A stretch of DNA of 20,000 bases, taken from IMG/VR virus record IMGVR_UViG_3300044233_005517. One strand, 5' to 3'. The notes under the pieces are model-generated. The model was not told the origin of the DNA, ran no database searches, and saw nothing but the letters and a program-made list of their open reading frames with translations. This document shows positions 1 to 20,000 of this stretch, in pieces. A program made the position numbers and the translations under genes. Source of the stretch: an uncultured virus (IMG/VR IMGVR_UViG_3300044233_005517) (lineage: Duplodnaviria; Heunggongvirae; Uroviricota; Caudoviricetes). Each line of letters starts with the position of its first letter. Positions within the stretch are counted from its first letter, which is position 1.

Positions 1-410
1 GATGATTTACTTGACTTTTCTGTTAAAATTTCATTTCCACGATTACCATAATAACCAACAGCGGAAGCAGAAATAAAAACTTTTGGTCGCGTCTTGCATC
101 CGTCCATCAACTTAACAAGTTTTCTGGTCAGGTCAATCCTGCTATTATAAATTTTCTTCTTATTCTTCCTTGTCCATCTTTTGATAATAGGTTCACCAGC
201 AAGATTGATAACCGCATCACATCTTTCTAATGTAGCGATAAGATGATTATCAAATGCTGTTGTTTGTAATAGTTGTGGCTTGGGACCTAAAGCTTTTCTT
301 GCTTTTTCTATATTGCGAACATAGCAAACGACTTCATGTTCATCCGACAAGAGTCTTTTTACTAAATTGCTCCCTATAAACCCTGTTGCCCCTGTTAAAA
401 ATACTTTCAT
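1..410 (-). CDS. TIGR01777/YfcH-like NAD(P)-dependent epimerase/oxidoreductase, 5' part (runs off window)
   Basis: Manual translation from ATG at 410 (SD GAGGA): MKVFLTGATGFIGSNLV...DAVINLAGEPI..RWT...SRIDLT...FISASAVGYYG. Rossmann GxxGxxG plus motifs typical of this family. Not in the ORF track because it is truncated. Confidence 0.9.
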   Translation of the reverse strand, partial: MKVFLTGATGFIGSNLVKRLLSDEHEVVCYVRNIEKARKALGPKPQLLQTTAFDNHLIATLERCDAVINLAGEPIIKRWTRKNKKKIYNSRIDLTRKLVKLMDGCKTRPKVFISASAVGYYGNRGNEILTEKSSKS

Positions 411-426
411 TTTATCCTCGTTTTTA

Positions 427-533
427 ATAGCGAGATTGTTGTTTCTTCGCAACAACAACGCTAGGCTTTCATAAAAAAGGCACTCACTTTAAAGCCATTG
501 GTGAGCTTCGATTAACAAAGTGTATCTCGCTAT
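427..533 (-). ncRNA. Candidate structured RNA / 5' leader (multi-stem, possible pseudoknot)
   Basis: Ends pair perfectly over 10 bp (ATAGCGAGAT/ATCTCGCTAT). Internal hairpins CTCAC/GTGAG and TGTTGTT/AACAACA. Loop GGCTTT is complementary to downstream AAAGCC. Begins just after a TTGACA-18-TATAAT promoter. Confidence 0.55.
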
Positions 534-537
534 GGAT

Positions 538-567
538 ATTATAGATGATATTTTTAGGAATTGTCAA
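538..567 (-). promoter_or_regulatory. sigma70-type promoter
   Basis: TTGACA (567-562), 18 nt, TATAAT (543-538). Confidence 0.75.
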
Positions 568-916
568 TATTATTTTCGTAATATTGCTCTGTCTGATATT
601 TCTTAACCAATTCTATTAGTGTCTTTTCTTGAATTCCCAAAAACCTCGCAGCCTCTCGTTTTGAGCTTGTTGCAGAAAGAGCATATTTTAGAACAGCATC
701 AGAAATAATATATTTAAGAGATTGCCAAACAGGGAAGCCATAGAACTTTCCCTTCATCAAGTCTCTTGTTGCGACCTCTAATTTTAGCCCAACAACCTCT
801 TCCAGTGAAAGATTAGAAAGGTACACTTCCAACTCTTCGTTTGATTTGCCTTCTTCTCTTAATTTTTTTGATAATGAATAACTTTTATTTTTACCGCTAT
901 TCTTTCTCTTCGTCAT
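554..916 (-). CDS. Protein with C-terminal Fis-like helix-turn-helix
   Basis: ALSATSSKREAARFLGIQEKTLIELVKKY resembles the Fis/HTH_8 pattern AL...K..AA..LGI...TL...KKY. Confidence 0.6.
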   Translation of the reverse strand: MTKRKNSGKNKSYSLSKKLREEGKSNEELEVYLSNLSLEEVVGLKLEVATRDLMKGKFYGFPVWQSLKYIISDAVLKYALSATSSKREAARFLGIQEKTLIELVKKYQTEQYYENNIDNS

Positions 917-3391: not shown

Positions 3392-3589
3392 TTATAACTT
3401 AATGATTATCATATGTTCCTCTTCCGTTTCTTGGGATTGCGGTTCTCCATATGATGAACTTTGGGATGGATAGTATAAGGGCAATTCTAAACGAGGTCTT
3501 TTTCTTTCTTCTTCTTCACGTTGACGTTTTTCTTCCTCAATGATTATTTCAATCGGAATATTTTCCCAAGGTTTTTTTTCATCGCCCAT
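3392..3589 (-). CDS. Hypothetical protein
   Basis: ORF track 3392..3625. ATG 3589 avoids overlap and follows a TAGTTA motif. Confidence 0.6.
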   Translation of the reverse strand: MGDEKKPWENIPIEIIIEEEKRQREEEERKRPRLELPLYYPSQSSSYGEPQSQETEEEHMIIIKL

Positions 3590-3599
3590 AATGTAACTA

Positions 3600-3872
3600 C
3601 TATTTCCTATTTCCTTTCGACTCAAGTTTTAACAAACCTAAATTTATTTCTTTTATTTCGCCATACGATGTTATAACTCTGGCTGTGTAAAAAACCCTAT
3701 CATTAAAAAAAGTGCGGAGACTTACTTTTTCTATAATGGCGTATGTCTTCTCGCCAGTACCTAATTTTGTCCAGGATACAAGATCTCCCTCTTTAAATCT
3801 TTTTTTTAATGAATATCCAATACCTTCATTATGGTTTTGCTGCCCACTCAATGTATGAGTAAATACACTCAT
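3600..3872 (-). CDS. GDLV-motif SH3/KOW-like small protein (isolated copy)
   Basis: FKEGDLVSW followed by alternating beta-strand pattern; start uncertain. Confidence 0.6.
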   Translation of the reverse strand: MSVFTHTLSGQQNHNEGIGYSLKKRFKEGDLVSWTKLGTGEKTYAIIEKVSLRTFFNDRVFYTARVITSYGEIKEINLGLLKLESKGNRK

Positions 3873-4299
3873 TGGTTAACTTACGAAAGTTTTTATCGTC
3901 AATATATAAATTTAATCTTTCGGCAAGTTTTCTACCACGCGCCCAAGCTTCTATTTCTTCAGTTAAAGTTTCAACACGATAATCTTTTGATTTTTCAATT
4001 CTTTTATTAGATGCAAATTCATTCATCTTTGATTGGGCAGGAAACTTTTCTTCATATTTAGAGCTGTTTTGATGGATTAAGAGATGACCGCATTCGTGGA
4101 GAAGAGAATATAATCTTTTTTCTATACTTTGCCTTTTAGAAATTGTGATATATTTTCCATGGAAAAAAATCTCATCGCGCACACAATAATCTTCATCAAC
4201 AGACCACCCTTTATTATCTAACCATACGCACAACAGTGCGAAACCATCAGTGAACATTTTTTGTTTAATTTTTTGCGTTTTTGTAAGTTTTTTTGCCAT
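3829..4299 (-). CDS. HExxH zincin-like metallopeptidase
   Basis: LYSLLHECGHLL with downstream EEIEAW; SD GGAGG; own promoter. Confidence 0.7.
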   Translation of the reverse strand: MAKKLTKTQKIKQKMFTDGFALLCVWLDNKGWSVDEDYCVRDEIFFHGKYITISKRQSIEKRLYSLLHECGHLLIHQNSSKYEEKFPAQSKMNEFASNKRIEKSKDYRVETLTEEIEAWARGRKLAERLNLYIDDKNFRKLTNECIYSYIEWAAKP

Positions 4300-4324
4300 A
4301 GTATACCTCCAACTTGGTAAAGAT

Positions 4325-4353
4325 ATTATAGCAAAATCAGGGGGTTATGTCAA
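4325..4353 (-). promoter_or_regulatory. sigma70-type promoter with extended -10
   Basis: TTGACA-17-TATAAT, TGn before the -10. Confidence 0.85.
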
Positions 4354-4383
4354 GAGGGAAAAAAGTGTAGTTATTTTAAGGGG

Positions 4384-5367
4384 TTATGAACTTTGTGTTA
4401 ATGCTGTCAATGCGTTAGCACCATTTCCGCTATTGTAAAGTGCATTAACTTGTCCTGTTGATAGAGCGGTACTCCAAATTGATATTTCGTCGAAATTCAT
4501 CGTTGCTTGTTTGGTTCCATTAAAGTTATTACCAAAATAAACATTTTCATCATCTAAAAATTGTTTTTGGAAATATCTGCCAGGTTGAGAATCGTCTGCA
4601 TAGCCAAAATCAGTGTTATTTATAAACATTTTGAATCTTCTGTTTGTCGCATCCGTGTCTCCATCCACAACAAATACAAAATGATTCCACCCCTCATAAT
4701 TTGACGAATCGTCATTTCCCCAAAATGTAAGTCCTGCGTGTGGGGTTGATGGGTCACGAGAATATACCAGCGGTTGACCTCGGTAAGTACCAAAATAAAA
4801 TCCGTAAGTAGCTCCACTGTCTAAATTTCCAAAAATTCTATAATTATTTAACTTATAAGATTCTCCTTCTACCATCGAAAAATACATCCACGCTGATACA
4901 GAAAAAGAACCAGAAAACAAAGTTCCCCAATTCGCCCTTTCCTGTATTGTCCCAAGATTGACACTTCTTGCACTATACTCGGCTGGAAATTGGAAAGAAT
5001 AACTACCAGAAAATACTGGATCTGTATCAAAGCCAAAATTCGTTTCGCTGGTAAAAGATCCTGTATAATTGTTTGTGCCCAATACATTTGTCACATATTG
5101 TGAACCAGATGTTTCAAAATCATAATAAGCGAAAGGTGTGATGTATGATGGCGGGGTTGGACCTGGCGATCCAGAAATCTCTTCTCTTGGAAAAATACTT
5201 GATGGGTTGCCCAATGTAGAAACATATGGAGCACCAGTTAATCTAATTGTGCGAGCATTTGGAACACCAAGAGAGAATGGTGCTTGAATTTGATTATCAC
5301 TTAAATCTGTATAATCTTTTGACCCCGAAGAAAGGGTGGTGATTATATAATCGTTGGTATTTGACAC
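4384..5367 (-). CDS. LamG / concanavalin A-like lectin domain protein (likely virion-associated)
   Basis: AYYDFE...FSVSAW...WNHFVFV...FINN...FDEISIWSTALSTGQVNALYN, typical LamG-like signature. Confidence 0.85.
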   Translation of the reverse strand: MSNTNDYIITTLSSGSKDYTDLSDNQIQAPFSLGVPNARTIRLTGAPYVSTLGNPSSIFPREEISGSPGPTPPSYITPFAYYDFETSGSQYVTNVLGTNNYTGSFTSETNFGFDTDPVFSGSYSFQFPAEYSARSVNLGTIQERANWGTLFSGSFSVSAWMYFSMVEGESYKLNNYRIFGNLDSGATYGFYFGTYRGQPLVYSRDPSTPHAGLTFWGNDDSSNYEGWNHFVFVVDGDTDATNRRFKMFINNTDFGYADDSQPGRYFQKQFLDDENVYFGNNFNGTKQATMNFDEISIWSTALSTGQVNALYNSGNGANALTALTQSS

Positions 5368-6836: not shown

Positions 6837-6909
6837 CACTCCCGGCAGGACTCGAACCTGCAACCTTGAGATTAGAAGTCTCCTGCTCTTCCAATTGAGC
6901 TACGGAAGT
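6837..6909 (-). tRNA. tRNA-Arg (anticodon TCT)
   Basis: ACTTCCG/CGGGAGT acceptor stem, D-arm GCTC..GAGC, anticodon loop CT-TCT-AA, T-arm GTTCGAGTC; no encoded CCA. Confidence 0.95.
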
Positions 6910-7621: not shown

Positions 7622-7694
7622 AGCCACAGATAGGACTTGAACCTACAACCTATGGTTTACAAAACCATTGCTCTACCAGTTGAGCTACTGTGGC
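7622..7694 (-). tRNA. tRNA-Thr (anticodon TGT)
   Basis: GCCACAG/CTGTGGC acceptor stem, ATGGT-TT-TGT-AA-ACCAT anticodon arm, GTTCAAGTC T-arm; no encoded CCA. Confidence 0.96.
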
Positions 7695-8301: not shown

Positions 8302-8330
8302 ATCCTATCAATTTATTTTTAATCTGTCAA
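8302..8330 (-). promoter_or_regulatory. sigma70-type promoter
   Basis: TTGACA-17-TAGGAT. Confidence 0.6.
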
Positions 8331-9236
8331 CAAAATTTTTCGATATTTTAATAAAGCAAGCTCTTTGGCTTTAGCTTCAATCATTAGATCAAACTTGTGC
8401 CCACAAGTGTCGATTGGCTTGTAGACATAATCTGAATGTGCTTGTGGTAAGCAGTCGTTTTGTTGTTCTTCTCGTCTTGATTCTGATAAGTGGCAAACTG
8501 GGGTTACATCATCCCAGCTTTCCATCGCATAATCAAGCGCCTCATCCAAGCATATAGATCCAGGGTGTAGATCATGGTGATGGTAATCAAAAACAATGGG
8601 ACTGCCAATATCCAAGTACATATATTTATAAAGTTCTTCGGTAGTAAAGAGCGAAGCTTTGTCGTCATTTTCAACTGTTAACCTTCTTTTAAGATTGTCA
8701 GACAATCTATCAAAATTTCTACAAAATCGATATGCTGTCTCTCGCTTGTCTTCGTATGCTGCGCCGATATGAATATTGATCTTGTTATAGTAACTAGGCT
8801 CAAAACCCATTAAGTCAAAAATTTCAGAGTGATGTTCCAAATCAGTCACAGTATTTTTAACAATGCGTTCTTCTTTGGCAGCAAGTTTATTGAAGGGACC
8901 AGGATGAAAAGTCAATCGTTGATTTACTTGAGTTGCATAATCACCCGCCTCTTTGAGTGCCTTGGTGATTTCTTCATAGTCGGGAAGTTGCTCAAGTTTG
9001 TATTCTGACGCCCAAGGAAAAATATTAGAGGACATACGATAAAACTTGATATCGTGCTCTTCATTCCATTGTATAATTTTAAGTAAATCTTTGCAATTTT
9101 GCAAAGCAAGTTCAGAAGCATAAGGCAAACCTTTCTCAAGAAAAGTTCGCTTAATCATGCCACGATTTGTAGTGATTCTTTTGCTTTTAGGTAAATTTGA
9201 AAAGCCCATATTAATGCAGGCATATCCCAGTCTCAT
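8319..9236 (-). CDS. uvsE: UV DNA damage endonuclease (UVDE)
   Basis: MRLGYACIN, FYRMSS, RLTFHPG, INIHIG, LTVENDD, VFDYHHH, HLSESR, AHSD, MIEAKAKE. Confidence 0.95.
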   Translation of the reverse strand: MRLGYACINMGFSNLPKSKRITTNRGMIKRTFLEKGLPYASELALQNCKDLLKIIQWNEEHDIKFYRMSSNIFPWASEYKLEQLPDYEEITKALKEAGDYATQVNQRLTFHPGPFNKLAAKEERIVKNTVTDLEHHSEIFDLMGFEPSYYNKINIHIGAAYEDKRETAYRFCRNFDRLSDNLKRRLTVENDDKASLFTTEELYKYMYLDIGSPIVFDYHHHDLHPGSICLDEALDYAMESWDDVTPVCHLSESRREEQQNDCLPQAHSDYVYKPIDTCGHKFDLMIEAKAKELALLKYRKILLTD

Positions 9237-9242
9237 ATTGGA

Positions 9243-9271
9243 ATAATACTACATTAAATGGGCTATGTCAA
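9243..9271 (-). promoter_or_regulatory. sigma70-type promoter, leaderless
   Basis: TTGACA-17-TATTAT, 6 nt before ATG 9236. Confidence 0.7.
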
Positions 9272-9282
9272 TGAAATATAGG

Positions 9283-10518
9283 CTAGAACTGCTCTTCTTC
9301 GGTAGAACCCTTAAGGGCTAAAGTTGAGGAATCTCCATCACTTACGATTTGAGAAATCTTATCAAAATAGCCTGTTCCAACTTCTCTTTGGTGCTTGACT
9401 GCGGTAAAACCATTATCAAGCTCTCCAAATTCTTTCTGTTGGAGTGCTGAATATGCAGCCATTCCAGTTTTTTCATAATCTTTTGCAAGCGTAAACATAC
9501 TATGATTAAGAGCGTGAAATCCAGCAAGAGTTACGAATTGGAATTTATATCCCATTTTTTCCAACTCTTTTTGGAATTTAGCAATTGTTTCTTTATCCAA
9601 GTGCTTTTCCCAATTAAAAGATGGAGAACAATTATAAGCCAAAAGCTTACCGGGAAATTTGGCATGAATTGCATCAGCAAACTTTTGCGCTTCTTCGAGA
9701 GAAGGGGTTGATGTCTCCAGCCACAACAGATCAGCATAAGGAGCATAAGCAAGCCCACGAGCAATGCCCATATCCAAACCACCAGTAATTTTATAAAAAC
9801 CTTCTGGGGTTCTTTCGCCGGTCATAAATGGATGGTCTCTTTCATCTACATCAGAAGTGATTAGTTTTGCAGAGTTTGCGTCAGTTCTTGCAATCAAAAC
9901 TGTCGGCACATCACACACGTCGGCAGCCAATCTTGCAGAAACAAGCGTTTTAATAAACTGCTTTGTCGGCACAAGAACCTTGCCTCCCATATGTCCGCAT
10001 TTCTTTTCTGAAGCTAACTGATCTTCAAAATGAACACCAGCAGCACCAGCTTCAATCATGCCCTTCATTAGCTCATATGCATTAAGAGGACCACCAAAGC
10101 CTGCTTCAGCGTCGGCAACAATAGGGACATAATAATCATGTTGTACACCACCCTCAACACTCTCAAGCTGATCAGCTCTCTGGAATGCTTTATTAATTTT
10201 TTTAACAACAGCAGGGACAGAGTTTGCAGGGTAAAGAGATTGGTCAGGATACATATCCCCAGCAAGATTTGCGTCAGCAGCTACTTGCCAACCGCTCAAA
10301 TAAATTGCCTTAAGTCCTGCTTTTACTTGCTGAACAGCTTGGTTTCCTGTGAGAGCACCAAGACTGCGAACGGCATCTTTTTCGTGCAAAAGCTCCCATA
10401 GTTTATTAGCTCCATCTTTTGCTAATGTATATTCAATTTTTTTGCTGCCCCTCAAGGAAAGCACCTCTTCTTTAATATATGGGCGCTCAATGCCATCCCA
10501 TCTATATGGTAATACCAT
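9283..10518 (-). CDS. aceA: Isocitrate lyase
   Basis: [30 protein letters not shown], catalytic [40 protein letters not shown]. Confidence 0.98.
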
Positions 10519-10532
10519 ATTATACTCCTTCT

Positions 10533-12074
10533 TTAGTTAATTAATTCGTAACACTTTGGTGTCAAGAAATCGTCTAGATTATCTGATAAACACATCTCTT
10601 TTGTCAAGTTAAAAGTTGCTTCATAGTTTTCTAAATTGCTATATTTTTCTAATTCTTCTCTCAATACTTGATTAAGGTGTGCGTCATTTAATACAATTCG
10701 GTTATCAAGAATAACTTCATGATGTTTCCATTGCCAGATTTGCGCTCTTGATATTTCTGCCGTAGCTGCATCTTCCATAAGATTATTAATCGGAACACAG
10801 CCATTTCCATTAATCCAGGAATTCATATACAAAAACATTATGTTAATATTTTCTCTTAACATCTTTTCGGTACAAACACCAACTGGAGAGGTTATTAAGT
10901 CACCAACAGAAATATGTCTTGTGAGTGTCTTTTTTCTGCTTATTTGATTTGGCTTATCCATATGGGCATCGAAGACTTCTTTAGCAATAGGAACGAGACC
11001 TGGATGTGCAACCCAAGTTCCATCATGACCTTCTAGAACCTCACGTAATTTATCAGCACGAACTTTATTCATAGCTGCTTCATTTGCTTCTGGATCGTTT
11101 TTGATTGGGATTTGAGCAGCCATACCACCCATAGCATGAACTCCGCGCCTATGACAAATATCAATTAATAATTGAGAATAAGATTTCATAAAATGAGAAT
11201 CCATTCCAACCGTAGAACGATCAGGCAAAACAAAGTTTTTATCGTGTTTAAAGCATTTAATATAAGAAAAGATATAATCCCATCTGCCACAGTTTAGTCC
11301 AGCTGAATGTTGCTGAAGTTCATATAAGATCTCTTCCATTTGAAAAACAGCAGGAAGGGTCTCAATAAGGACCGTTGCCTTTATCAATCCAATATTAATA
11401 TCAACATAATCTTGAGCAAATTTAAACACATCATTCCACAATCTTGCTTCTCTTGCATGTTCCAACTTGGGCAGATAAAAATAAGGACGAGTCCCGTTTT
11501 CTAAAAGTGTTTTATAATTATTAATGAAGTATGTTCCAAAATCAAAAAGAGAAGCGCGTATCGGACTATCATCAACAAGATAATTTTTCTCTAGTAGATG
11601 AAGACCTCTTGGTCTCACAAACAGAACAGATGTTTTGTCATTTAAACTATACTTCTTTCCATTTTTTGGGTTTGTATATTCTATGGTTCTTTCTACAGCG
11701 TCACGAAGATTAATCTGTCCTTGAATACAGTTTTCCCACGTAGGGCAGTTAGAATCTTCAAGGTCTGACATATAAACATTAGCACCAGAATTAAGAGCAT
11801 TAATGATCATTTTCCTTACTGGAGGTCCCGTTATTTCTACACGACGATCTTTAATATCTTCTGGGCATGGCTCACATTTCCAACCTTCATCAGCTTTATC
11901 AATCTTGGATCTTGGATCGTCTATCTTGATTGAAGAATTATTTTGTAATTCACTATAGAATTCTTGTCTTTTGTTTAATAAAGAATTTATTCTATCGTCA
12001 AATTTGTTGTGAAGTTCGTTTAAAAATTTTTTTGTTTCGTTTGTTAATATAGAGTCTACTATTTCTTGATTCAT
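10533..12074 (-). CDS. aceB: Malate synthase A
   Basis: [74 protein letters not shown]. Confidence 0.98.
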
Positions 12075-13198: not shown

Positions 13199-13441
13199 CT
13201 AGGGGTTTTTTACTAATTTTATGTCTTTAGTGCTATAAACGCCGGTTGTACCATCAGTAAATCGAATTTTCCACGTTTCATAGCCAGGGGAGGTTCTAAA
13301 GTCGTGCCCGTGAAGAGGATAAAGCACAATTGCCCAATCTTTAGGGTCATTATGAGGCTCATCCCACTCAAATTGTGGAGATTCCCAATAACTAATCCTT
13401 TTTACCTTTACAAGTGATCCTTTTTTGATTATTTTATTCAT
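13199..13441 (-). CDS. GDLV-family SH3/KOW-like small protein
   Basis: IKKGSLVKV...WAIVL...WKIRF...IKLV. Confidence 0.65.
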   Translation of the reverse strand: MNKIIKKGSLVKVKRISYWESPQFEWDEPHNDPKDWAIVLYPLHGHDFRTSPGYETWKIRFTDGTTGVYSTKDIKLVKNP

Positions 13442-13452
13442 AATCTCAAATA

Positions 13453-13677
13453 TTAACACTCTTTAACTAATGTTATCTCATCTATACCCAAAAATACAGT
13501 ACTTTGTGCCGCAAACTTAACTTTATATCCAGTCATATTTAATTTTTCCATGACTTCGGACACAATGATACCGTTTTGACCCAAATATTGTTCACCTACC
13601 GGATTATTGGCAAAAGTTGCTTCACCCCATGTGGATAACTTAACTAAATCACCAAAATTAAAGATTTTATCATCCAT
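13453..13677 (-). CDS. GDLV-family SH3/KOW-like small protein
   Basis: FNFGDLVKL...GIIV...YKVKF...ITLV; likely start 13677. Confidence 0.7.
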   Translation of the reverse strand: MDDKIFNFGDLVKLSTWGEATFANNPVGEQYLGQNGIIVSEVMEKLNMTGYKVKFAAQSTVFLGIDEITLVKEC

Positions 13678-13876
13678 TTTTGCTAAAAGCCTCGCATTTT
13701 GCACGATTTTCCACCCAAGTTGCAAATTTTTGACGCAAACTTGTTAAGTGGTCATACTTCCATCGCTCTCGCTCGCTTAATTTAGTCACATCTTGGCGAA
13801 TATAGCGTTCGATTTCGTTATAAACTGCCCAATCAAGCATTAGCAGCTCTTCTTCGTTTAAATTATCAAAGTTCAT
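13670..13876 (-). CDS. Hypothetical helical protein
   Basis: 68 aa, coupled to both neighbours. Confidence 0.65.
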   Translation of the reverse strand: MNFDNLNEEELLMLDWAVYNEIERYIRQDVTKLSERERWKYDHLTSLRQKFATWVENRAKCEAFSKNG

Positions 13877-14160
13877 TACTCTGCCCGTGAACGAATATCA
13901 CGCAGATTGCCTTCTTTATCGAAAGTTGCTTCAATATAGCCGCCATCAAAGGTTAGCATATAATCGTTCCACTCGTCCCAATCTAAATTTGCTCGTTTTA
14001 ATAGTTCTAATAGAACTTCTTTATCTGTTTTTTCCATAAAAGAGTATTTTAACTCATCCTCCAGTAAATCTTGACGCATTTTAAGCGCAAATTTTAACAT
14101 TATTAAAAATATAAGACCAAGCGTCCACAACATTTCAGAAGTAAACACTTGAAAGATCAT
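13876..14160 (-). CDS. Hypothetical protein with N-terminal transmembrane helix
   Basis: MLWTLGLIFLIMLKFAL hydrophobic segment. Confidence 0.65.
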   Translation of the reverse strand: MIFQVFTSEMLWTLGLIFLIMLKFALKMRQDLLEDELKYSFMEKTDKEVLLELLKRANLDWDEWNDYMLTFDGGYIEATFDKEGNLRDIRSRAE

Positions 14161-14162
14161 TA

Positions 14163-14396
14163 TTACGACCGTTCCTTGGTCAATTCAAACTCGGCTTCCT
14201 CCCAGTAGAGTTCTTTGCATTGTTCATTCACATATAAAACATAAATGGGCTTACTTTTATCATATGAAAGGTGATAATCGATTTCAGGTCCAGTTAAAAT
14301 TTGAGAAATAACTGCTACAGAGCCATGAAGTCTTTCAGGAACAGACTCAACCTTTTTAAACCTTACTAAATCGCCAATTTTATATTTATGAGCCAT
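14163..14396 (-). CDS. GDLV-family SH3/KOW-like small protein
   Basis: YKIGDLVRF. Confidence 0.75.
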   Translation of the reverse strand: MAHKYKIGDLVRFKKVESVPERLHGSVAVISQILTGPEIDYHLSYDKSKPIYVLYVNEQCKELYWEEAEFELTKERS

Positions 14397-14643
14397 TTAC
14401 ATCTGCCCTCGAAAGAAGTTTTAATTGATTGTCGGTATACCATCCGTTACTTCGTCCTACATCACACCAGTTTATTTGATAAATGCCGGTTGTTCGCGTC
14501 TGCACAGTTGTGACTTCCACAACCTTCACAAAACCAATCCAACGATTATATTCAATATTGCTTTCAGCTTCTCTCCATCCAGGAATATATTCAACCAAGT
14601 CACCAATTTTAAACTTTGGTTGATGATATGATTTCAAACTCAT
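14386..14643 (-). CDS. GDLV-family SH3/KOW-like small protein
   Basis: FKIGDLVEY...YQINW...LKLLSRA. Confidence 0.75.
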   Translation of the reverse strand: MSLKSYHQPKFKIGDLVEYIPGWREAESNIEYNRWIGFVKVVEVTTVQTRTTGIYQINWCDVGRSNGWYTDNQLKLLSRADVNGS

Positions 14644-14854
14644 TTCGATTTAAAATCCTTGTTTGATCAGTTGTGGCGAATCGCACCCTATAATTGTATT
14701 GGAATGGTTTTTCTGTACCAGATTCATCAACATTTGACCACTTTTTGCGAACAAGAATAACACCAATATCACCTTTTTTAAGCCAGTCCCACACAGGGTC
14801 TACAATTCTAATTAGATCGCCAACATCGGCAACGTCTTTATTCAGCATTATCAT
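14609..14854 (-). CDS. GDLV-family SH3/KOW-like small protein
   Basis: DVGDLIRI...GDIGVIL...YRVRF...FEII. Confidence 0.75.
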   Translation of the reverse strand: MIMLNKDVADVGDLIRIVDPVWDWLKKGDIGVILVRKKWSNVDESGTEKPFQYNYRVRFATTDQTRILNRNEFEIISSTKV

Positions 14855-15068
14855 TTCCTCTCGCTAAAATCTTTAAGTACCAACGGGTTTTTGGATCAAC
14901 GCGAATCCACTCATTCGCAGTCCATCCACCCCATTTCACAAGAACATCATATTCGTTGTGAGGTTGGGGCTTTAAATCTATAACAACACCCGTTTCGCCA
15001 TCTCCGTAAACAGAATCATTTCTTATTAAATCGCCAATCTTATGACGTTTAAGCTCGTGCTTGTTCAT
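14838..15068 (-). CDS. GDLV-family SH3/KOW-like small protein
   Basis: HKIGDLIRN...GVVID...LVKW...LKILARG. Confidence 0.75.
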   Translation of the reverse strand: MNKHELKRHKIGDLIRNDSVYGDGETGVVIDLKPQPHNEYDVLVKWGGWTANEWIRVDPKTRWYLKILARGNDNAE

Positions 15069-15267
15069 TGTTGCTCCGTTTTATCAAAACTACGTTATAT
15101 ATTGGGCGAACAATCGGGCGAGGCTTATAGGTCCATTTGATCTTTGCCCAACCCATATCACCAAAGAGCGAAACACAAACACCGTAAACCTCGTGAACAG
15201 GATTAAAAACTAAATCGCCAATTTTGGGATATTCGCCGTCTTTGTATGTTTTATGAAGTGTATCCAC
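15049..15267 (-). CDS. GDLV-family SH3/KOW-like small protein
   Basis: PKIGDLVFN...GVCV...KIKW; likely GTG start 15267 after CGAGGG. Confidence 0.7.
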   Translation of the reverse strand: MDTLHKTYKDGEYPKIGDLVFNPVHEVYGVCVSLFGDMGWAKIKWTYKPRPIVRPIYNVVLIKRSNNEQARA

Positions 15268-15460
15268 ATTGCCCTCGCGCAATTAGATAAAGATTGTTTT
15301 CTTTAATCCAATATTCTTGCTCATTGTTCCACAAACATCGATACTTGGTTGTACGACCAACCTTGATTGACATTGTGACAATACCATAGCCATGTGTTTC
15401 AGTGGCTTCAAACTTCTTTTCTCTTACGAGATCTCCTACTTTAAATCTAAACTTGTTCAT
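15251..15460 (-). CDS. GDLV-family SH3/KOW-like small protein
   Basis: FKVGDLVRE...GIVT...YRCLW...LYLIARG. Confidence 0.75.
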   Translation of the reverse strand: MNKFRFKVGDLVREKKFEATETHGYGIVTMSIKVGRTTKYRCLWNNEQEYWIKENNLYLIARGQCGYTS

Positions 15461-15668
15461 CTTTATTTATTTTTATTAACTTATCGGAGGTCGTCCAAAA
15501 AGTGCCGTAGTCTAGCCAATGCACCTTTACTTGATCAAAAAAGTTTTCTTTGTCAACCTCCACAACAACACCCCAGCTTTTATATCCGTTTGGGTGTCGC
15601 GAGTTCTCCTTAACTAAATCACCAACCTTAAGACCCTGAAAGTCAAATTTAAGCTGTGTTTTCGACAT
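15447..15668 (-). CDS. GDLV-family SH3/KOW-like small protein
   Basis: LKVGDLVKE...GVVVEV...VKVHW; likely start 15668. Confidence 0.75.
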   Translation of the reverse strand: MSKTQLKFDFQGLKVGDLVKENSRHPNGYKSWGVVVEVDKENFFDQVKVHWLDYGTFWTTSDKLIKINKDEQV

Positions 15669-15873
15669 TCTTGGTTCCTTCGGCAATAATATATAGATTT
15701 GTGTTCTTTTCTGAAACATATTGCCCAGTATTGACCCAGCGAATAACCGAGTTATGCGGAAATGCCCTGACAACAACGCCGAATCCAACAAGTTCGTTAT
15801 TCACATCTCCAACAAACCCAACTAAATCGCCCACACTTGTTGGGCAAGTCATTTTCGCGAGTGGTCGCTTCAT
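15649..15873 (-). CDS. GDLV-family SH3/KOW-like small protein
   Basis: SVGDLVGF...GVVV...VIRW...LYIIAEG; ATGA overlap start 15873. Confidence 0.75.
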   Translation of the reverse strand: MKRPLAKMTCPTSVGDLVGFVGDVNNELVGFGVVVRAFPHNSVIRWVNTGQYVSEKNTNLYIIAEGTKNVENTA

Positions 15874-16067
15874 GCTACCTTCTCCAAGTCCCACTCACTA
15901 AACCTTACAGTGTGACCAGATGTTAGTCTAACAAGGTATGGATAGTTTCGCGCCTTATAGTTGACATCGATGCAAACTCCATAAAGGTCATTTTCCAGCT
16001 GATTAAGGATTTTTACCAAGTCTCCTGGAAATACTTCGTCTTCTGAAAAGTTTATGCCCATTAACAT
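15870..16067 (-). CDS. GDLV-family SH3/KOW-like small protein
   Basis: FPGDLVKI...GVCID...YLVRL...LEKVA; start 16067 or 16061. Confidence 0.7.
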   Translation of the reverse strand: MLMGINFSEDEVFPGDLVKILNQLENDLYGVCIDVNYKARNYPYLVRLTSGHTVRFSEWDLEKVA

Positions 16068-16270
16068 GTCTTCACCATCCTTAAACGAGTGCTTGAATAG
16101 CATTGTTCATCTGTGTTTGGACCACCTGCCCAATATACACGAACGAACTGCTCAATACCTGTTAGATCCCAATCTTCAACATTAATAACAATCCCTATCG
16201 TTCCCATCGGTGGATGACGGTTTGGATGATATGTTGCGTCCAATTTTACTAAATCTCCAATCTTAAACAT
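16061..16270 (-). CDS. GDLV-family SH3/KOW-like small protein
   Basis: MFKIGDLVKL...GIVIN...VRVYW...LRMV; TAATG coupling. Confidence 0.75.
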   Translation of the reverse strand: MFKIGDLVKLDATYHPNRHPPMGTIGIVINVEDWDLTGIEQFVRVYWAGGPNTDEQCYSSTRLRMVKTC

Positions 16271-16455
16271 TATGCCCTCGTAAGATTTTCTAAAAGTTTT
16301 GTGGGATACCAATCTTCAGTGCCACAGCTCCAACGAACCAGACAGATTTCCCATGAAACGCCCTCTTCCGCGCTCAAGACAACGCCTCGCTCTCCTGCAT
16401 CAAACATGGAATTTTCTTTTAAGTTCCATATTACTAAATCGCCTACTCTAAACAT
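16270..16455 (-). CDS. GDLV-family SH3/KOW-like small protein
   Basis: MFRVGDLVIW...GVVL...LVRW...LLENLTRA. Confidence 0.75.
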   Translation of the reverse strand: MFRVGDLVIWNLKENSMFDAGERGVVLSAEEGVSWEICLVRWSCGTEDWYPTKLLENLTRA

Positions 16456-16693
16456 TGTTTGCCCTCGCTAATACTTCTGTTTTTTCCCAAGATGTTTCAC
16501 CGTGTATAATTGACAGTGGTGCGTTACATGTCCAATTGATTAGCGCATAACGTTGCAGCGGTCTTGTAATGCTGTCTGCGCTTTCTCCTATTTCTATCAC
16601 AACACCTATCTCTGGCTTGTCACCCGCAAGTATGTCATACTCATTTGGATTCCATCTCACCAAGTCGCCCACTTTAAATTTATTATAATCCAT
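16448..16693 (-). CDS. GDLV-family SH3/KOW-like small protein
   Basis: FKVGDLVRW...GVVIE...LINW...EVLARA. Confidence 0.75.
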   Translation of the reverse strand: MDYNKFKVGDLVRWNPNEYDILAGDKPEIGVVIEIGESADSITRPLQRYALINWTCNAPLSIIHGETSWEKTEVLARANNV

Positions 16694-16930
16694 TTATGCT
16701 GCCTGAACAACATCAAGGTCAATGTCGTGATAAATCCAATATTTGCCTTGAACAAGTCCATGTCCGATTCCTGCCCACTTAACATAAACAAGGTGACTGC
16801 AAGACTCATCCATGCATTCGGTATGATCTACTTCTTCTGAATGAATCACAAGACCGACAGTATCTCTTTGAATGTCATCAATGTAATTGAGAGTGGTTTC
16901 TTTTAGTTTTACAAGACTTCCGACTTTCAT
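16694..16930 (-). CDS. GDLV-family SH3/KOW-like small protein
   Basis: MKVGSLVKL...GLVI...YVKW...LDVV. Confidence 0.75.
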   Translation of the reverse strand: MKVGSLVKLKETTLNYIDDIQRDTVGLVIHSEEVDHTECMDESCSHLVYVKWAGIGHGLVQGKYWIYHDIDLDVVQAA

Positions 16931-16936
16931 GCCCTT

Positions 16937-16965
16937 ATTATATGTAATTAAATAAGGTTTGTCAA
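16937..16965 (-). promoter_or_regulatory. sigma70-type promoter, leaderless
   Basis: TTGACA-17-TATAAT, 6 nt before ATG 16930. Confidence 0.85.
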
Positions 16966-17007
16966 TTGGTAATTTCCCTAAATCTGAAAATTTTTTTGGG
17001 GGATTTT

Positions 17008-17268
17008 TTAGGGGCTTGCTTTTGCCACAAGTGATAATCTGTCTTCGCGCTGTAGGTAGTGGGTTTCCCCTGAAGGAAGTAGGATGTGATAGTAGTGGTT
17101 TTTGATTTCTTGGCTTCGACCTGAACGTGTCATTCTGTAACCGGCTTTTTCTCTATGAGTGACCATGCCCGTTAAATAAAATGGTCTTTCTGAACGTTTC
17201 CATTCTTGGAAGTTTATGTAGGGTCTTTGAAAGACTACAAGGTCGCCTATCTGAAACTTATACTTCAT
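17008..17268 (-). CDS. GDLV-family SH3/KOW-like small protein
   Basis: FQIGDLVVF...GMVT...YHILL...LSLVAKA. Confidence 0.75.
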   Translation of the reverse strand: MKYKFQIGDLVVFQRPYINFQEWKRSERPFYLTGMVTHREKAGYRMTRSGRSQEIKNHYYHILLPSGETHYLQREDRLSLVAKASP

Positions 17269-17512
17269 CTTTAAAATGTCCTATAGGGTATATTCCATTG
17301 CGTAATTTTAAGACTTTTCCATCTGCTCTGCGAATTTTGTACACATAGTAAGCAACACCGTCAAAGACTTCATCAGATTTTCCTATTACAACTGCGGGAA
17401 TTGTGTCAGGTGGCTGAAGGTTTGCTCTTCTTGCTTCATGCATTGAGAGATTGCTTGTTGAGCGTTGTACAATGCATTCGACCAAATCTCCTACCTCAAA
17501 CTCAAATCTCAA
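17258..17512 (-). CDS. GDLV-family SH3/KOW-like small protein
   Basis: FEVGDLVEC...AVVIG...YKIRR; TTG start with SD GAGGT. Confidence 0.7.
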   Translation of the reverse strand: MRFEFEVGDLVECIVQRSTSNLSMHEARRANLQPPDTIPAVVIGKSDEVFDGVAYYVYKIRRADGKVLKLRNGIYPIGHFKDEV

Positions 17513-17539
17513 AATTTTACCTCGGTATTGAAAACGTAT

Positions 17540-17625
17540 CTAGGCGACCCCAGGGTATCCCCGTATAGGGTAGGACCTACATTCCGGGGGAGGGGTGGGA
17601 CTTACCCCACACCCAGCCCCAAAAC
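17540..17625. other. GC-rich non-coding island with short palindromes and G/C runs
   Basis: ACCCCAGGGT, GTAGGACCTAC, GGGGGAGGGGTGGG and GTGGG..CCCAC in an otherwise AT-rich window. Confidence 0.6.
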
Positions 17626-17629
17626 ATTT

Positions 17630-17812
17630 TTAATGGGTAATTCCCCTAACCACAATCTCACCTGTCTGTATTAGGGTTTGTGCTGTGCGCTGGTAATGAC
17701 CTTGCAGGTTAAGGATAAACCCGGTGTCCATTAGGTCTTGAAAGAAAGAAACAATTTCGTCCCATTCCATTTGTCCATCTTCATACTGAATGATCCTGTC
17801 AATAAAGTTCAT
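17630..17812 (-). CDS. Small conserved phage-type protein (YExG...FQxLxDTG...LQGHYxR pattern)
   Basis: ATG 17812 with SD GGAGG; MNFIDRIIQYEDGQM...FFQDLMDTGFILNLQGHYQRTA. Confidence 0.75.
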   Translation of the reverse strand: MNFIDRIIQYEDGQMEWDEIVSFFQDLMDTGFILNLQGHYQRTAQTLIQTGEIVVRGITH

Positions 17813-17847
17813 GTTATCGTCCTCCAAGTCCCTGTTATTATTATTGT

Positions 17848-18102
17848 TTATTCCCATACTCGAAGTTCCCAATTGTCCAGGTCTTCTTGTGGAACGATCT
17901 GAACACGAGATTGACACTGGGGCAAAAACTTGTTGATGTGTTTAGAAGTTGTGACAGACCACTTACGCTCTGTCTTGTAATCAACAGTAGGTCCACGAAC
18001 TGCTACAGGGGTTTCGTAAGAAAATAAAACTTCAAGGGTTCTTCCGTTTGGAAGCTTGCTGACTACTACTGTTTGGTTTGATCCGATGTTCTTGATTCTC
18101 AT
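17848..18102 (-). CDS. Small conserved phage-type protein (FSYxTPVA / SxTTSKHIN pattern)
   Basis: LFSYETPVAV...KWSVTTSKHINKF; SD GAGGAG. Confidence 0.8.
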   Translation of the reverse strand: MRIKNIGSNQTVVVSKLPNGRTLEVLFSYETPVAVRGPTVDYKTERKWSVTTSKHINKFLPQCQSRVQIVPQEDLDNWELRVWE

Positions 18103-18150
18103 TATGATTTCTCCTCAATCCTTTTGGTTAATGGTAGATGGTTAATGGTT

Positions 18151-18330
18151 CTAGTATGCGTACGACTCGCGAGCATACCCGTCATTGTTAGCGAAGTGCA
18201 TCCAATAAATGTCACGACACAAGTCACGAAGTTTTTTAGTTGATAGGGTAGGATCGACATCTTTTCCGAATCCTTCCAAGAAGTCGAGTAGTTCAATTCG
18301 TGAAGCGTTTTTGATTTCTGTCAAGTTCAT
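18151..18330 (-). CDS. Small hypothetical protein (59 aa), leaderless
   Basis: Manual translation MNLTEIKNASRIELLDFLEGFGKDVDPTLSTKKLRDLCRDIYWMHFANNDGYARESYAY; ATG 6 nt after the -10. Confidence 0.7.
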   Translation of the reverse strand: MNLTEIKNASRIELLDFLEGFGKDVDPTLSTKKLRDLCRDIYWMHFANNDGYARESYAY

Positions 18331-18336
18331 GGTTAT

Positions 18337-18405
18337 AATATATCTCCTCTGATCATGTTTGTCAAATGGTAAATGGTTATTTATTATCTTTTCTGTGCAA
18401 ACCCT
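18337..18405 (-). promoter_or_regulatory. Module repeat plus sigma70 promoter (copy 1)
   Basis: AGGGTTTGCACAGAAAAGATAATAAATAA (18405-18377) starts 40 bp upstream of TTGACA-17-TATATT. Confidence 0.8.
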
Positions 18406-18500
18406 TAAAGCTGGGACATCCAGAAAAGGACAAGCCCGATGGTATAAGTAAGACCACCAATAACGATGATTGCTGTTTTGTTTTTTAGTTCGTTATTCAT
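18405..18500 (-). CDS. 31-aa single-TM microprotein, leaderless
   Basis: MNNELKNKTAIIVIGGLTYTIGLVLFWMSQL; ATG 6 nt after the -10; TAA overlaps the next repeat. Confidence 0.6.
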   Translation of the reverse strand: MNNELKNKTAIIVIGGLTYTIGLVLFWMSQL

Positions 18501-18506
18501 GCTCTT

Positions 18507-18575
18507 ACTATACCTCGGTGTTATTCAGATGTCAACAAAAAAACTGATTTATTTAATCTTTTTTGTGGAAACCCT
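18507..18575 (-). promoter_or_regulatory. Module repeat plus sigma70 promoter (copy 2)
   Basis: AGGGTTTCCACAAAAAAGATTAAATAAA starts 40 bp upstream of TTGACA-17-TATAGT. Confidence 0.8.
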
Positions 18576-18768
18576 ACAGTCTATCTTCAATGCTCCCGAT
18601 TAAACCTTTGTCATCAAAAGCAATTGAGCACATGCGAATGGGATAGCCAATGATTGTGCGCTTGACCACTTCACACCGAAAGTCTGCGATATCCCATAAG
18701 TCGTTGTCAAAGACATACAGCAGCGGGACAGTGATTAACCCTATTATCATTAAACCTTTTTTGATCAC
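18574..18768 (-). CDS. Small membrane-anchored/exported protein
   Basis: N-terminal hydrophobic segment, 2 Cys; TAG overlaps the repeat. Confidence 0.6.
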   Translation of the reverse strand: MIKKGLMIIGLITVPLLYVFDNDLWDIADFRCEVVKRTIIGYPIRMCSIAFDDKGLIGSIEDRL

Positions 18769-19001
18769 TATCGAGAACCTCCCACAGAAACAGACGCATC
18801 AGGACGATAAGCCGGGATCCGTCGAAGGACCATGCAAGCAACCTTGCCATCATTAATCAGTTCAATAGCGGCATTCTGATATTTCTCATGCATGTCATAT
18901 ACCATTCCAGTGTCTACAAGCTCCTGAATGAAATCAATTCTTTCATCCTGGTTCATAAGGTTATTTGAAAAGCGATCCATTTTCTCTAAAATCCCGAACA
19001 T
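18768..19001 (-). CDS. Small protein, apparent paralog of 17630..17812
   Basis: FIQELVDTG...YQNAAIELINDG vs FFQDLMDTG...YQRTAQTLIQTG; SD AAGGAG. Confidence 0.75.
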   Translation of the reverse strand: MFGILEKMDRFSNNLMNQDERIDFIQELVDTGMVYDMHEKYQNAAIELINDGKVACMVLRRIPAYRPDASVSVGGSR

Positions 19002-19043
19002 AATTTTTCTCCTTTATGTTTCGTTTGATTGTTTATGTCTTGT

Positions 19044-19112
19044 ATTATAAGGGAAGGAACAAAGGTAGTCAACAAAAAAATGATTATTTATTATCTTTTC
19101 TGTGATTACCCT
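19044..19112 (-). promoter_or_regulatory. Module repeat plus sigma70 promoter (copy 3)
   Basis: AGGGTAATCACAGAAAAGATAATAAATAA starts 40 bp upstream of TTGACT-17-TATAAT. Confidence 0.8.
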
Positions 19113-19138
19113 TATTCCTTCCGGGACAGTGTTAATGC

Positions 19139-19297
19139 CTATGCAGGCTGAATCCAGAACTTATATCCTGGACCATATTGCTCTTGTCTCTTCTTACAGA
19201 TACCAAGTAGCTTATAAGGATTGTCCATCAATCCGGTTGACAATGGGACAGTGAATGTCTGACCGTTCGGTGTTTGCATCATTAGTTCCATACGCAT
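19139..19297 (-). CDS. Small hypothetical protein (52 aa)
   Basis: Manual translation MRMELMMQTPNGQTFTVPLSTGLMDNPYKLLGICKKRQEQYGPGYKFWIQPA; SD AAGGAG. Confidence 0.65.
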   Translation of the reverse strand: MRMELMMQTPNGQTFTVPLSTGLMDNPYKLLGICKKRQEQYGPGYKFWIQPA

Positions 19298-19311
19298 TAT
19301 TATGAGTCTCC

Positions 19312-19548
19312 TTATCCTAGGTTGATGGGTGTTTGATTGCCAAGAGAGACAACGGGTGAACCATCATTCATGTGTTCGGTCGTGTGACCAGTGTATACAA
19401 CGATCTGAAAGTCGTTGTCAGATTCCATAGATGCTTCTGCACGAAATAGATGGCGCATGGCAACTTGAAGATCTCCACGTGATTCGATAAGCTCACGAAG
19501 GTCGTTAGCAAGAGTGATGATTTTAATTTTCTTATCAGTGTTTGTCAT
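19312..19548 (-). CDS. Hypothetical protein
   Basis: 78 aa, SD AAGGAG, own promoter. Confidence 0.7.
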   Translation of the reverse strand: MTNTDKKIKIITLANDLRELIESRGDLQVAMRHLFRAEASMESDNDFQIVVYTGHTTEHMNDGSPVVSLGNQTPINLG

Positions 19549-19585
19549 GTTTGGTTCTCCTTATGACTAATTGTTTATACTGTGT

Positions 19586-19654
19586 ATTATGACAGAGTGG
19601 ATTGTGAAAGTCAATAATTATTTATTATTTATTTCACTTTTTTGTGTAAACCCT
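19586..19654 (-). promoter_or_regulatory. Module repeat plus sigma70 promoter (copy 4)
   Basis: AGGGTTTACACAAAAAAGTGAAATAAATAA starts 40 bp upstream of TTGACT-17-CATAAT. Confidence 0.8.
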
Positions 19655-19836
19655 TATTCGGGTAAGTCCTCCATCTTTTCTGCCATTTCTCTTAACTCTC
19701 TGGATGCCCACTCGTCAAGGATGGCATGTGCCTTTTCTTTCAATTCGACTGGGATCCCATCTACATTGCTTGCGTGATACAAAAGATCATCAAGAATCTT
19801 ATAAAGTTTGTAATCAGGTTTGTCTCTGTAATTCAT
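19654..19836 (-). CDS. Small hypothetical protein, leaderless
   Basis: 60 aa; ATG 7 nt after the -10; TAA overlaps the repeat. Confidence 0.7.
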   Translation of the reverse strand: MNYRDKPDYKLYKILDDLLYHASNVDGIPVELKEKAHAILDEWASRELREMAEKMEDLPE

Positions 19837-19843
19837 TATGTGT

Positions 19844-19912
19844 ATTATCTCAAATTAAACTTTGAATGTCAATAAATAAATTAATCTTATTTATCTTTTC
19901 TGTGAAAACCCT
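19844..19912 (-). promoter_or_regulatory. Module repeat plus sigma70 promoter (copy 5)
   Basis: AGGGTTTTCACAGAAAAGATAAATAA starts 40 bp upstream of TTGACA-17-GATAAT. Confidence 0.8.
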
Positions 19913-19937
19913 GATCATGTTGTAAAACAGGACAGTG

Positions 19938-19966
19938 ATTATATCATGTTTATCAGGGCTTGTCAA
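19938..19966 (-). promoter_or_regulatory. sigma70-type promoter with extended -10
   Basis: TTGACA-17-TATAAT with TGn; no complete ORF before the next repeat. Confidence 0.8.
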
Positions 19967-20000
19967 CCCCTGTTTTTACGTTTATTACGTTTCACTTTAT

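Follow-up and report, generated by a model that had tools for sequence, protein, structure and literature searches.

Does the short stretch between a phage promoter and the oxidoreductase gene behind it encode an RNA with a conserved fold and, if it does, to which class of RNA does it belong and what might it do for the phage? The question arose from a sequence-only reading of the DNA referred to here as the window, the whole stretch of 20,000 nucleotides that was analysed, which stems from an uncultured virus of the Caudoviricetes (IMG/VR record IMGVR_UViG_3300044233_005517). That reading had proposed a promoter-driven structured RNA with a closing helix, two hairpins, a possible pseudoknot and an alternative fold, and had named a phage sRNA, a ribozyme and a riboswitch-like leader as candidates. 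The gene content of the window, and IMG/VR contigs identical to it over the 3.9 kb compared, suggest that it is part of a large phage genome. Among annotated phage records, there was no real DNA match to the window, and two neighbouring proteins were likewise without a match.

Layout of the element and conservation of its fold

The positions of the features are collected in Table 1. The helices P1, P2 and P3, the complementarity of the P2 loop hexamer and an internal 5-mer (463-459) were each found on the minus strand where the sequence-only reading had placed them. The element follows a sigma70-type promoter sequence (567-538) that is matched in 12 of 12 positions with an 18-nt spacer; the window contains four such perfect matches compared with 0.07 expected, and TTGAC-type boxes occur at the end of the 120-aa gene in many homologous loci. 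Transcription had been thought to start at 533, which is indeed promoter-proximal, but the spacing from the -10 box makes A531 the more likely start within a range of 533-531. Taken alone, the 107 nt fold with -29.1 kcal/mol (z = -2.62), and 3 of 200 shuffled sequences fold equally well. This single-sequence signal is modest, and the structure is settled because of the homologs.

Table 1. Features of the element and its surroundings, in window coordinates.
Feature	Position	Strand	Remarks
Structured non-coding RNA	427..533	minus	about 105-107 nt in the window phage; from the fold and models R1/R2
-35 box	562..567	minus	within the last codons of the 120-aa upstream gene
-10 box	538..543	minus	part of the 12/12 sigma70-type promoter match
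P1 5' strand (closing helix)	524..533	minus	10 bp with 427..436
P1 3' strand	427..436	minus	immediately 3' of P3
J1/2 linker	506..523	minus	A/U-rich (family median A+U 0.79), length and sequence variable
P2 hairpin	483..505	minus	505-501 pairs with 487-483
Pseudoknot 5' strand	491..496	minus	P2 loop hexamer, complementary to 469-464
Pseudoknot 3' strand	464..469	minus	pairs with 496-491
Variable linker	470..482	minus	in the window lineage with a U-run, 478-473
Conserved unpaired U-R-G 3' of the pseudoknot	461..463	minus	G in 79/86 members
P3 hairpin	437..457	minus	457-451 pairs with 443-437; purine-rich loop 450-444
Upstream 120-aa gene	554..916	minus	phage-clade marker, holds the -35 box; neighbour of the RNA, partner role not implied
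Shine-Dalgarno (419-415) plus oxidoreductase gene of the TIGR01777 family, starting at 410	1..419	minus	exchangeable cargo between the RNA and tmRNA, outside the element

Homologous loci were collected by way of the 120-aa upstream gene, which has 225 relatives and for which an alignment of 50 was used as search seed. With this seed, 80 of 157 viral loci, 80 of 423 metagenome loci and one MAG locus were fetched, leaving 110 downstream regions after the removal of duplicates. Model R1 gave 68 matches in 100 sources and the core model R2, built from 51 sequences including a diverged subfamily, gave 75 matches in the same 100 sources; the window RNA, which was included in both training sets, scores 87.1 bits with R1 and 60.6 bits with R2. 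Models, pattern hits and second copies together yielded a family of 86 distinct parsed cores, many of them closely related, to which four were added later. The automated parse misassigned P1 or P3 in about ten rows, and the statements on P1 rest on separate alignment and fold analyses. Searches with loose DNA patterns returned mostly chance hits: R1 found 8 matches in 100 of the resulting loci, of which the one in L402 is probably due to chance, and the loci of one such pattern set were checked by blastn only. The weak R2 hits in G021 and G044 and the second hits in G028 and G042, which are without the pseudoknot, were rejected. Two further loci that look degenerate, G033 (L295) and L274, were left out of all counts; the copies they carry where the RNA usually lies (L295 2920-3060, L274 2884-2973) are probably decayed or very diverged.

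The comparison of the homologs shows a minus-strand RNA that folds into the closing helix P1, an H-type pseudoknot (P2 and a further 5-6 bp) and P3, and whose linkers tolerate inserts. From 5' to 3', the family is arranged as P1, an A/U-rich linker, P2, a variable stretch, the pseudoknot 3' strand, U-R-G, P3 and P1, with a median length of 129 nt. The P2 loop consists of 3 nt, the 6-nt pseudoknot strand and a further 3 nt, the segment after the hexamer having this length in 74 of the 86 members. The variable stretch reaches up to about 85 nt, often has a hairpin of its own and ends in most members in a purine-rich 5-mer (U-R-A-A-R), which the window lineage has replaced by its U-run. P3 has a purine-rich loop across the family and is directly followed by P1 in most members. 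Conservation is focused on the closing pairs of P2, the loop of P3 and the bases next to the pseudoknot, and the linkers drift; the U of U-R-G, found in 86 of 86, is conserved by construction, as it was demanded by the parser. In one sub-lineage, an extra covarying helix named P0 forms around the P1 5' strand as a second pseudoknot, as seen in 11 members picked for it (L256, L280, L286, L366, L378, L290, L309, L457, L257, L401 and L254).

In the first alignment, 89.9% of the cells were paired, compared with 32-45% in slid controls, and 21 of the 26 pairs had double changes. This strong covariation among homologs from related phage contigs backs P1, P2 and P3, that is, the closing helix and the two hairpins, and the compensatory changes also bear out the pseudoknot, which had been put forward only as a possibility. 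P1 was able to pair in 85 of the 86 members in a lenient test, as opposed to 44-57 in shuffled controls. Five pairs of the pseudoknot are firm and the sixth is variable. Among 51 sequences, pair 2 occurs as G-C (22), A-U (16), U-A (6), U-G (4) and C-G (3) with zero mismatches. Kinship was controlled for with a quick tree built from the neighbouring protein, with many forks open; of its 103 rows, 77 have the RNA next to the gene. The changes counted on this tree for the 5' side, the 3' side and the pair were 20/21/22 for pair 2, 5/5/5 for pair 3, 4/4/4 for pair 4 and 7/7/9 for pair 5, and these near-equal counts mean that nearly all changes are paired. In a blind test, a pattern with the six pseudoknot bases left open gave 56 distinct hits, 24 with a downstream landmark; nine paired in 5 of 5 positions, compared with 0.5 when the letters were shuffled. 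Seven of the nine had already been collected, and the new ones, L600 and L615, neither of them used in modelling, have previously unseen, fully paired hexamers. In the model-fitted alignment A3, G-U pairs exceed A-C pairs (94 against 25), which favours an RNA on the minus strand. Judged by this sequence evidence, the element belongs to a real, well-supported family of structured RNAs of large phages (roughly 185-205 kb) without a match in Rfam.

The alternative fold, in which the 5-mer 463-459 was to compete with P1, did not hold up beyond the complementarity itself: its ensemble probability is 0.0003, its energy -15.0 as opposed to -22.2 kcal/mol, and it is possible, with perfect complementarity, in 2 of the 86 members. 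By this modelling, the alternative helix is a by-product of the window phage's own P1 sequence, 7 kcal/mol worse than the conserved fold.

Genomic context and distribution

The first downstream element, classed by rough scripted rules with ORFs judged from their N-terminal sequence, is a tRNA-Gly gene in 25 of the 86 members, a tmRNA gene in 22, an ORF in 22 and a new promoter in 7; nothing lies within 260 nt in 6, and none was found in 4. The 22 ORFs fall into about ten unrelated N-termini. This comparison shows an RNA that is independent of the gene behind it and that usually heads a unit carrying tRNA-Gly and tmRNA. A U-rich tract lies 3' of the core in 55 members. In the window's phage, the order is RNA, TIGR01777 oxidoreductase, 114-aa gene, IscU and tmRNA, which marks the genes between the RNA and tmRNA as cargo. 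The TIGR01777 assignment has 339 bits against a cut-off of 207 for the full gene in L001, where the cassette of the oxidoreductase, the 114-aa gene and IscU spans 3507-5126; other phages have other genes there.

Several observations concern the locus itself. The 120-aa gene marks the stable-RNA locus and carries its -35 box. Its protein (554-916, minus strand) has no Pfam, PHROG or NCBIfam match, and the nearest named Atlas cluster, a Fis-type HTH_8 (0.85), is a lead only. The tmRNA genes are just 238-249 nt long in L001 (5132-5369), L238 (3453-3701), L241 (3470-3714) and L249 (3093-3335), compared with 312-408 nt elsewhere in the clade. A deep branch without the RNA behind the 120-aa gene (L308, L312 and L313) has a different short, shared and internally repeated motif at the same intergenic position.

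When R2 was applied to 50 whole viral records, 35 matched at E up to 0.05, two of which were rejected as chance and one was set aside as degenerate; the 15 records without a match are all fragments, 6-81% complete. The RNA is present in six of the six records that are at least 90% complete (185-205 kb), all of which are in the R2 training set, five having been chosen via the protein and one because it bears the RNA. Two records have a second genuine copy, and 11 copies have a location other than beside the usual gene: most are surrounded by short genes, and some are placed after the end of a gene and ahead of a new promoter. On the neighbour-protein tree, the presence of the RNA beside the 120-aa gene changes at least 10 times. 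The interior of the RNA is gone in L389 (about 1775-1800), a sister lineage of L390 with flanks 83-85% identical, where only the P1 arms are left before the tmRNA, in one contig that could be an assembly artefact. This loss, together with the 15 unmatched records, suggests that the RNA may be dispensable.

A single copy came from a MAG. There, the same type of phage gene precedes it and a tmRNA follows, and the copy is probably on a phage contig in the bin; in a sample of 150 genomes from the phylum to which this MAG belongs (26 candidates scored per genome), R2 had no match. Contigs from RNA runs (4 of 11 runs, all small shares) cover the flanking genes and leave 427-533 uncovered, a pattern in which contigs cannot show absence.

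Relation to known RNAs and possible functions

No family of Rfam 15 reached the gathering threshold on the RNA in the window, in 12 related loci searched whole or in two members searched alone, the best score on the window being 21.1 bits against a cut-off of 100. The single exception was tmRNA_permuted, a spill-over from the adjacent tmRNA in the 12 related loci, and at E up to 10 nothing was found on the RNA either, in line with the statement of the sequence-only reading that no known family could be assigned. A literature search, which lacked most subscription papers, found no published description of the RNA family. The available passages of Fremin et al. 2023 (PMC10690425) give 8,495 candidate RNAs predicted from the intergenic regions of IMG/VR; motif and contig-name searches of the accessible tables, which may hold no sequences, gave 0 hits, and this candidate list may include the RNA motif or a fragment of it. 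In the main text of a 2026 preprint on prokaryotic non-coding clusters (10.64898/2026.10.21.760802), the word phage is absent. The novelty sits in the RNA class: none of the known families passed its membership test; orphan phage RNA as a broad category is already known.

The species 1 and 2 RNAs of T4 (rnaC and rnaD) are likewise small stable RNAs, 119-139 nt in length, inside a phage tRNA cluster, and their function is given as unknown in the passages available of PMC9697503. However, they had no match with R2 (filters off, E up to 5), their predicted folds differ, and they are classed as late RNAs, whereas the window RNA follows a sigma70-type promoter. They are analogues in context only and not homologs, and the present family adds an unrelated second example to the long-standing puzzle of the role of stable RNAs in phage tRNA clusters.

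Our leading reading, held tentatively and with somewhat less than even confidence, is a stand-alone stable RNA that is cut from the stable-RNA transcript and acts in trans by binding a protein through its fold; among the options raised beforehand, "phage sRNA" fits best. The independence from the downstream gene, the paired ends, the promoter at the 5' end, the U-rich 3' flank and the neighbourhood of tRNA and tmRNA genes point to a discrete stable RNA, and the presence in all near-complete records, the second copies and the relocated copies were counted in favour of its standing alone. The host polymerase of the sigma70 type would transcribe the RNA from the promoter at 567-538, and its 3' end would arise either in the U-rich tract that follows P1, through termination or cleavage, or from an RNase P cut at the next tRNA or tmRNA and subsequent trimming; the paired ends would stabilise the product. 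The weakest step is the next one, in which the RNA would act in trans by its shape, binding a host or phage protein, and not by base pairing with a target. No antisense seed is evident, given that the linkers are A/U-rich and not conserved, and the conserved junction and loop bases, as opposed to the drifting linkers, suggest shape recognition rather than antisense pairing. The protein might be contacted via the pseudoknot junction and the purine-rich P3 loop, and the RNA could serve as its decoy or scaffold; examples of such a protein would be a defence nuclease that binds RNA, or a factor of translation or transcription.

A precedent for a decoy is the phage pseudo-ToxI, which, like the type III antitoxins ToxI, antiQ and CptI, has an H-type pseudoknot with A-rich flanks and binds protein (available passages of PMC5086642). 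Type III antitoxins, however, consist of tandem repeats of about 35 nt with a terminator and a toxin gene according to the same passages, whereas the phage RNA is a single unit in all parsed members, three times longer, and has a closing helix and P3. No repeat was listed at 427-567 among the 20 largest repeat families of the window; the neighbours are varied and no toxin gene was seen behind the RNA.

New small covarying RNA folds with a compact conserved core are the usual origin of new classes of ribozymes, riboswitches and RNA-protein complexes. The retention of this RNA next to tmRNA and tRNA-Gly genes in a clade of large, uncultured phages points to an RNA-level step in host takeover or counter-defence. 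We see a small, though appreciable, chance that the RNA, with its compact core of pseudoknot and hairpin that is near-universal in one clade of large phages, is the founding member of a new catalytic or ligand-binding class that cuts or gates the tRNA/tmRNA transcript, or a trans-acting counter-defence factor against host RNases. With about 90 natural variants and a defined structure, its function is directly testable.

The stable-RNA transcript offers another role, in cis. At its usual locus, the RNA lies immediately behind a strong promoter, and a tRNA, tmRNA or ORF comes first within 260 nt in 69 of the 86 members; in most members, an element in the same orientation lies no more than about 100 nt from the pseudoknot, which also fits a cis role, and the frequent U-rich tract behind the core counts for it as well. 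By analogy with known leaders, the folded 5' end might protect the precursor against decay, guide its processing or modify the polymerase for read-through of the untranslated tRNA/tmRNA region. The put element of HK022 and the EAR elements are read-through elements that modify RNA polymerase, put consisting of two stem-loops behind the promoter that do so in cis. A description of put is absent from the available passages of PMC4496710. We nevertheless consider such a leader unlikely: in many relatives the same promoter position leads straight into tmRNA with no RNA between, a new promoter follows the RNA at once in 7 of the 86 members, with several such copies behind a gene end, and P1 closes only once the whole RNA has been made.

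A new ribozyme would likewise be compatible with the compact pseudoknotted core, its dozen or so conserved junction bases and its free peripheral inserts, and with the indifference to the downstream gene and the occasional second copies; weighing these sequence features, we regard it as rather unlikely. The theta (HDV-like) ribozymes of gut phages, which are also structured RNAs beside phage tRNA genes, provide a tRNA-associated precedent in the passages available (PMC10879173), where they are proposed to cut the tRNA 3' trailer and are built as a nested double pseudoknot whose catalytic C lies in J4/2. In contrast, the phage RNA has a single core pseudoknot and another topology, is located upstream of tRNA-Gly in 25 of the 86 members and lies 5' of tRNA and tmRNA genes, whose 5' ends RNase P already makes. 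The order of loop-pseudoknot, short conserved junction, P3 and closing helix loosely recalls the phage-associated pistol ribozyme as presented in the accessible passages of PMC6154101, with which it shares a pseudoknot of the six-bp type between the first hairpin loop and a strand leading into P3. However, according to these passages, P2 of pistol lies between the hairpin and the pseudoknot strand, whereas the third helix of the phage RNA closes the whole RNA, and the fixed 2-nt G-U cleavage junction to P3 is absent, as is an Rfam match to pistol. At E up to 10 no ribozyme family matched, and the confirmed members with checked context all belong to one phage clade. A hammerhead reading of the P2 3' strand and the A-rich 5-mer was rejected, the strand covarying as a helix and the positions not being conserved.

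It is improbable, though suggested by analogy, that the RNA is a ligand-binding aptamer with a fold related to the core of the fluoride riboswitch (crcB, RF01734), which would sense its ligand to control termination or would serve as a sponge. Both share the H-type pseudoknot and similar conserved surrounding bases: in the phage RNA, the loop bases A-U are followed by a first pseudoknot pair that is G-C in 81 of the 86 members, the sixth pair is U-G in 24, and there is a conserved A three bases upstream of the pseudoknot 3' strand (74/86) and a U after it. These features are, however, common to H-type pseudoknots. In the aptamer of B. cereus, the accessible passages of PMC8004769 describe the G7-C44 and U12-G39 pairs, an A37-U45 linchpin and U38 in the binding pocket; in the phage RNA, A or C takes the place of U38, and of the two positions that precede the 3' strand, U occupies one in 6 and the other in 5 of 86. 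The phage RNA is also enclosed by the closing helix and P3, its loop has three extra bases, and neither the window nor two typical members matched crcB at E up to 10. Whereas the fluoride riboswitch lies in the 5' UTR of fluoride-related genes and has an expression platform, the phage RNA precedes tRNA, tmRNA, varied ORFs and promoters, and no transporter gene, no crcB-like or otherwise consistent downstream gene and no conserved switch were seen.

A riboswitch-like leader that controls TIGR01777 translation through the alternative fold is not supported; it is very improbable and largely refuted. The window does have the complementarity, and the start of the gene is 17 nt away from P1, but, apart from the rarity of the alternative helix, the Shine-Dalgarno sequence lies outside P1 and is unpaired (p of at least 0.94), the gene comes next in 4 of the 86 members, a close relative whose upstream protein is 90% identical has another gene there, and in 47 of the 86 the RNA is followed by a tRNA or tmRNA gene, which offers no start codon for a leader to control.

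Other features of the window

Two tRNA genes on the minus strand (6837-6909 and 7622-7694) flank a DUF2490 gene. Adjacent genes for a UvsE endonuclease, an isocitrate lyase and a malate synthase A lie at 8319-12074 on the same strand, all above the NCBIfam cut-offs, so that both glyoxylate-shunt enzymes are found in one phage. Many short ORFs of 60-115 aa with a shared N-terminal K-(I/V)-G-D-L-V-like motif occupy 13200-17500 (minus strand), and ORFs similar to this set surround the relocated RNA copies. The region 16900-19970 (minus strand) looks like an early, variable region, with repeated promoter-like units (direct repeat families D1, D2, D7 and D11) among short genes and two further perfect TTGACA/TATAAT matches.
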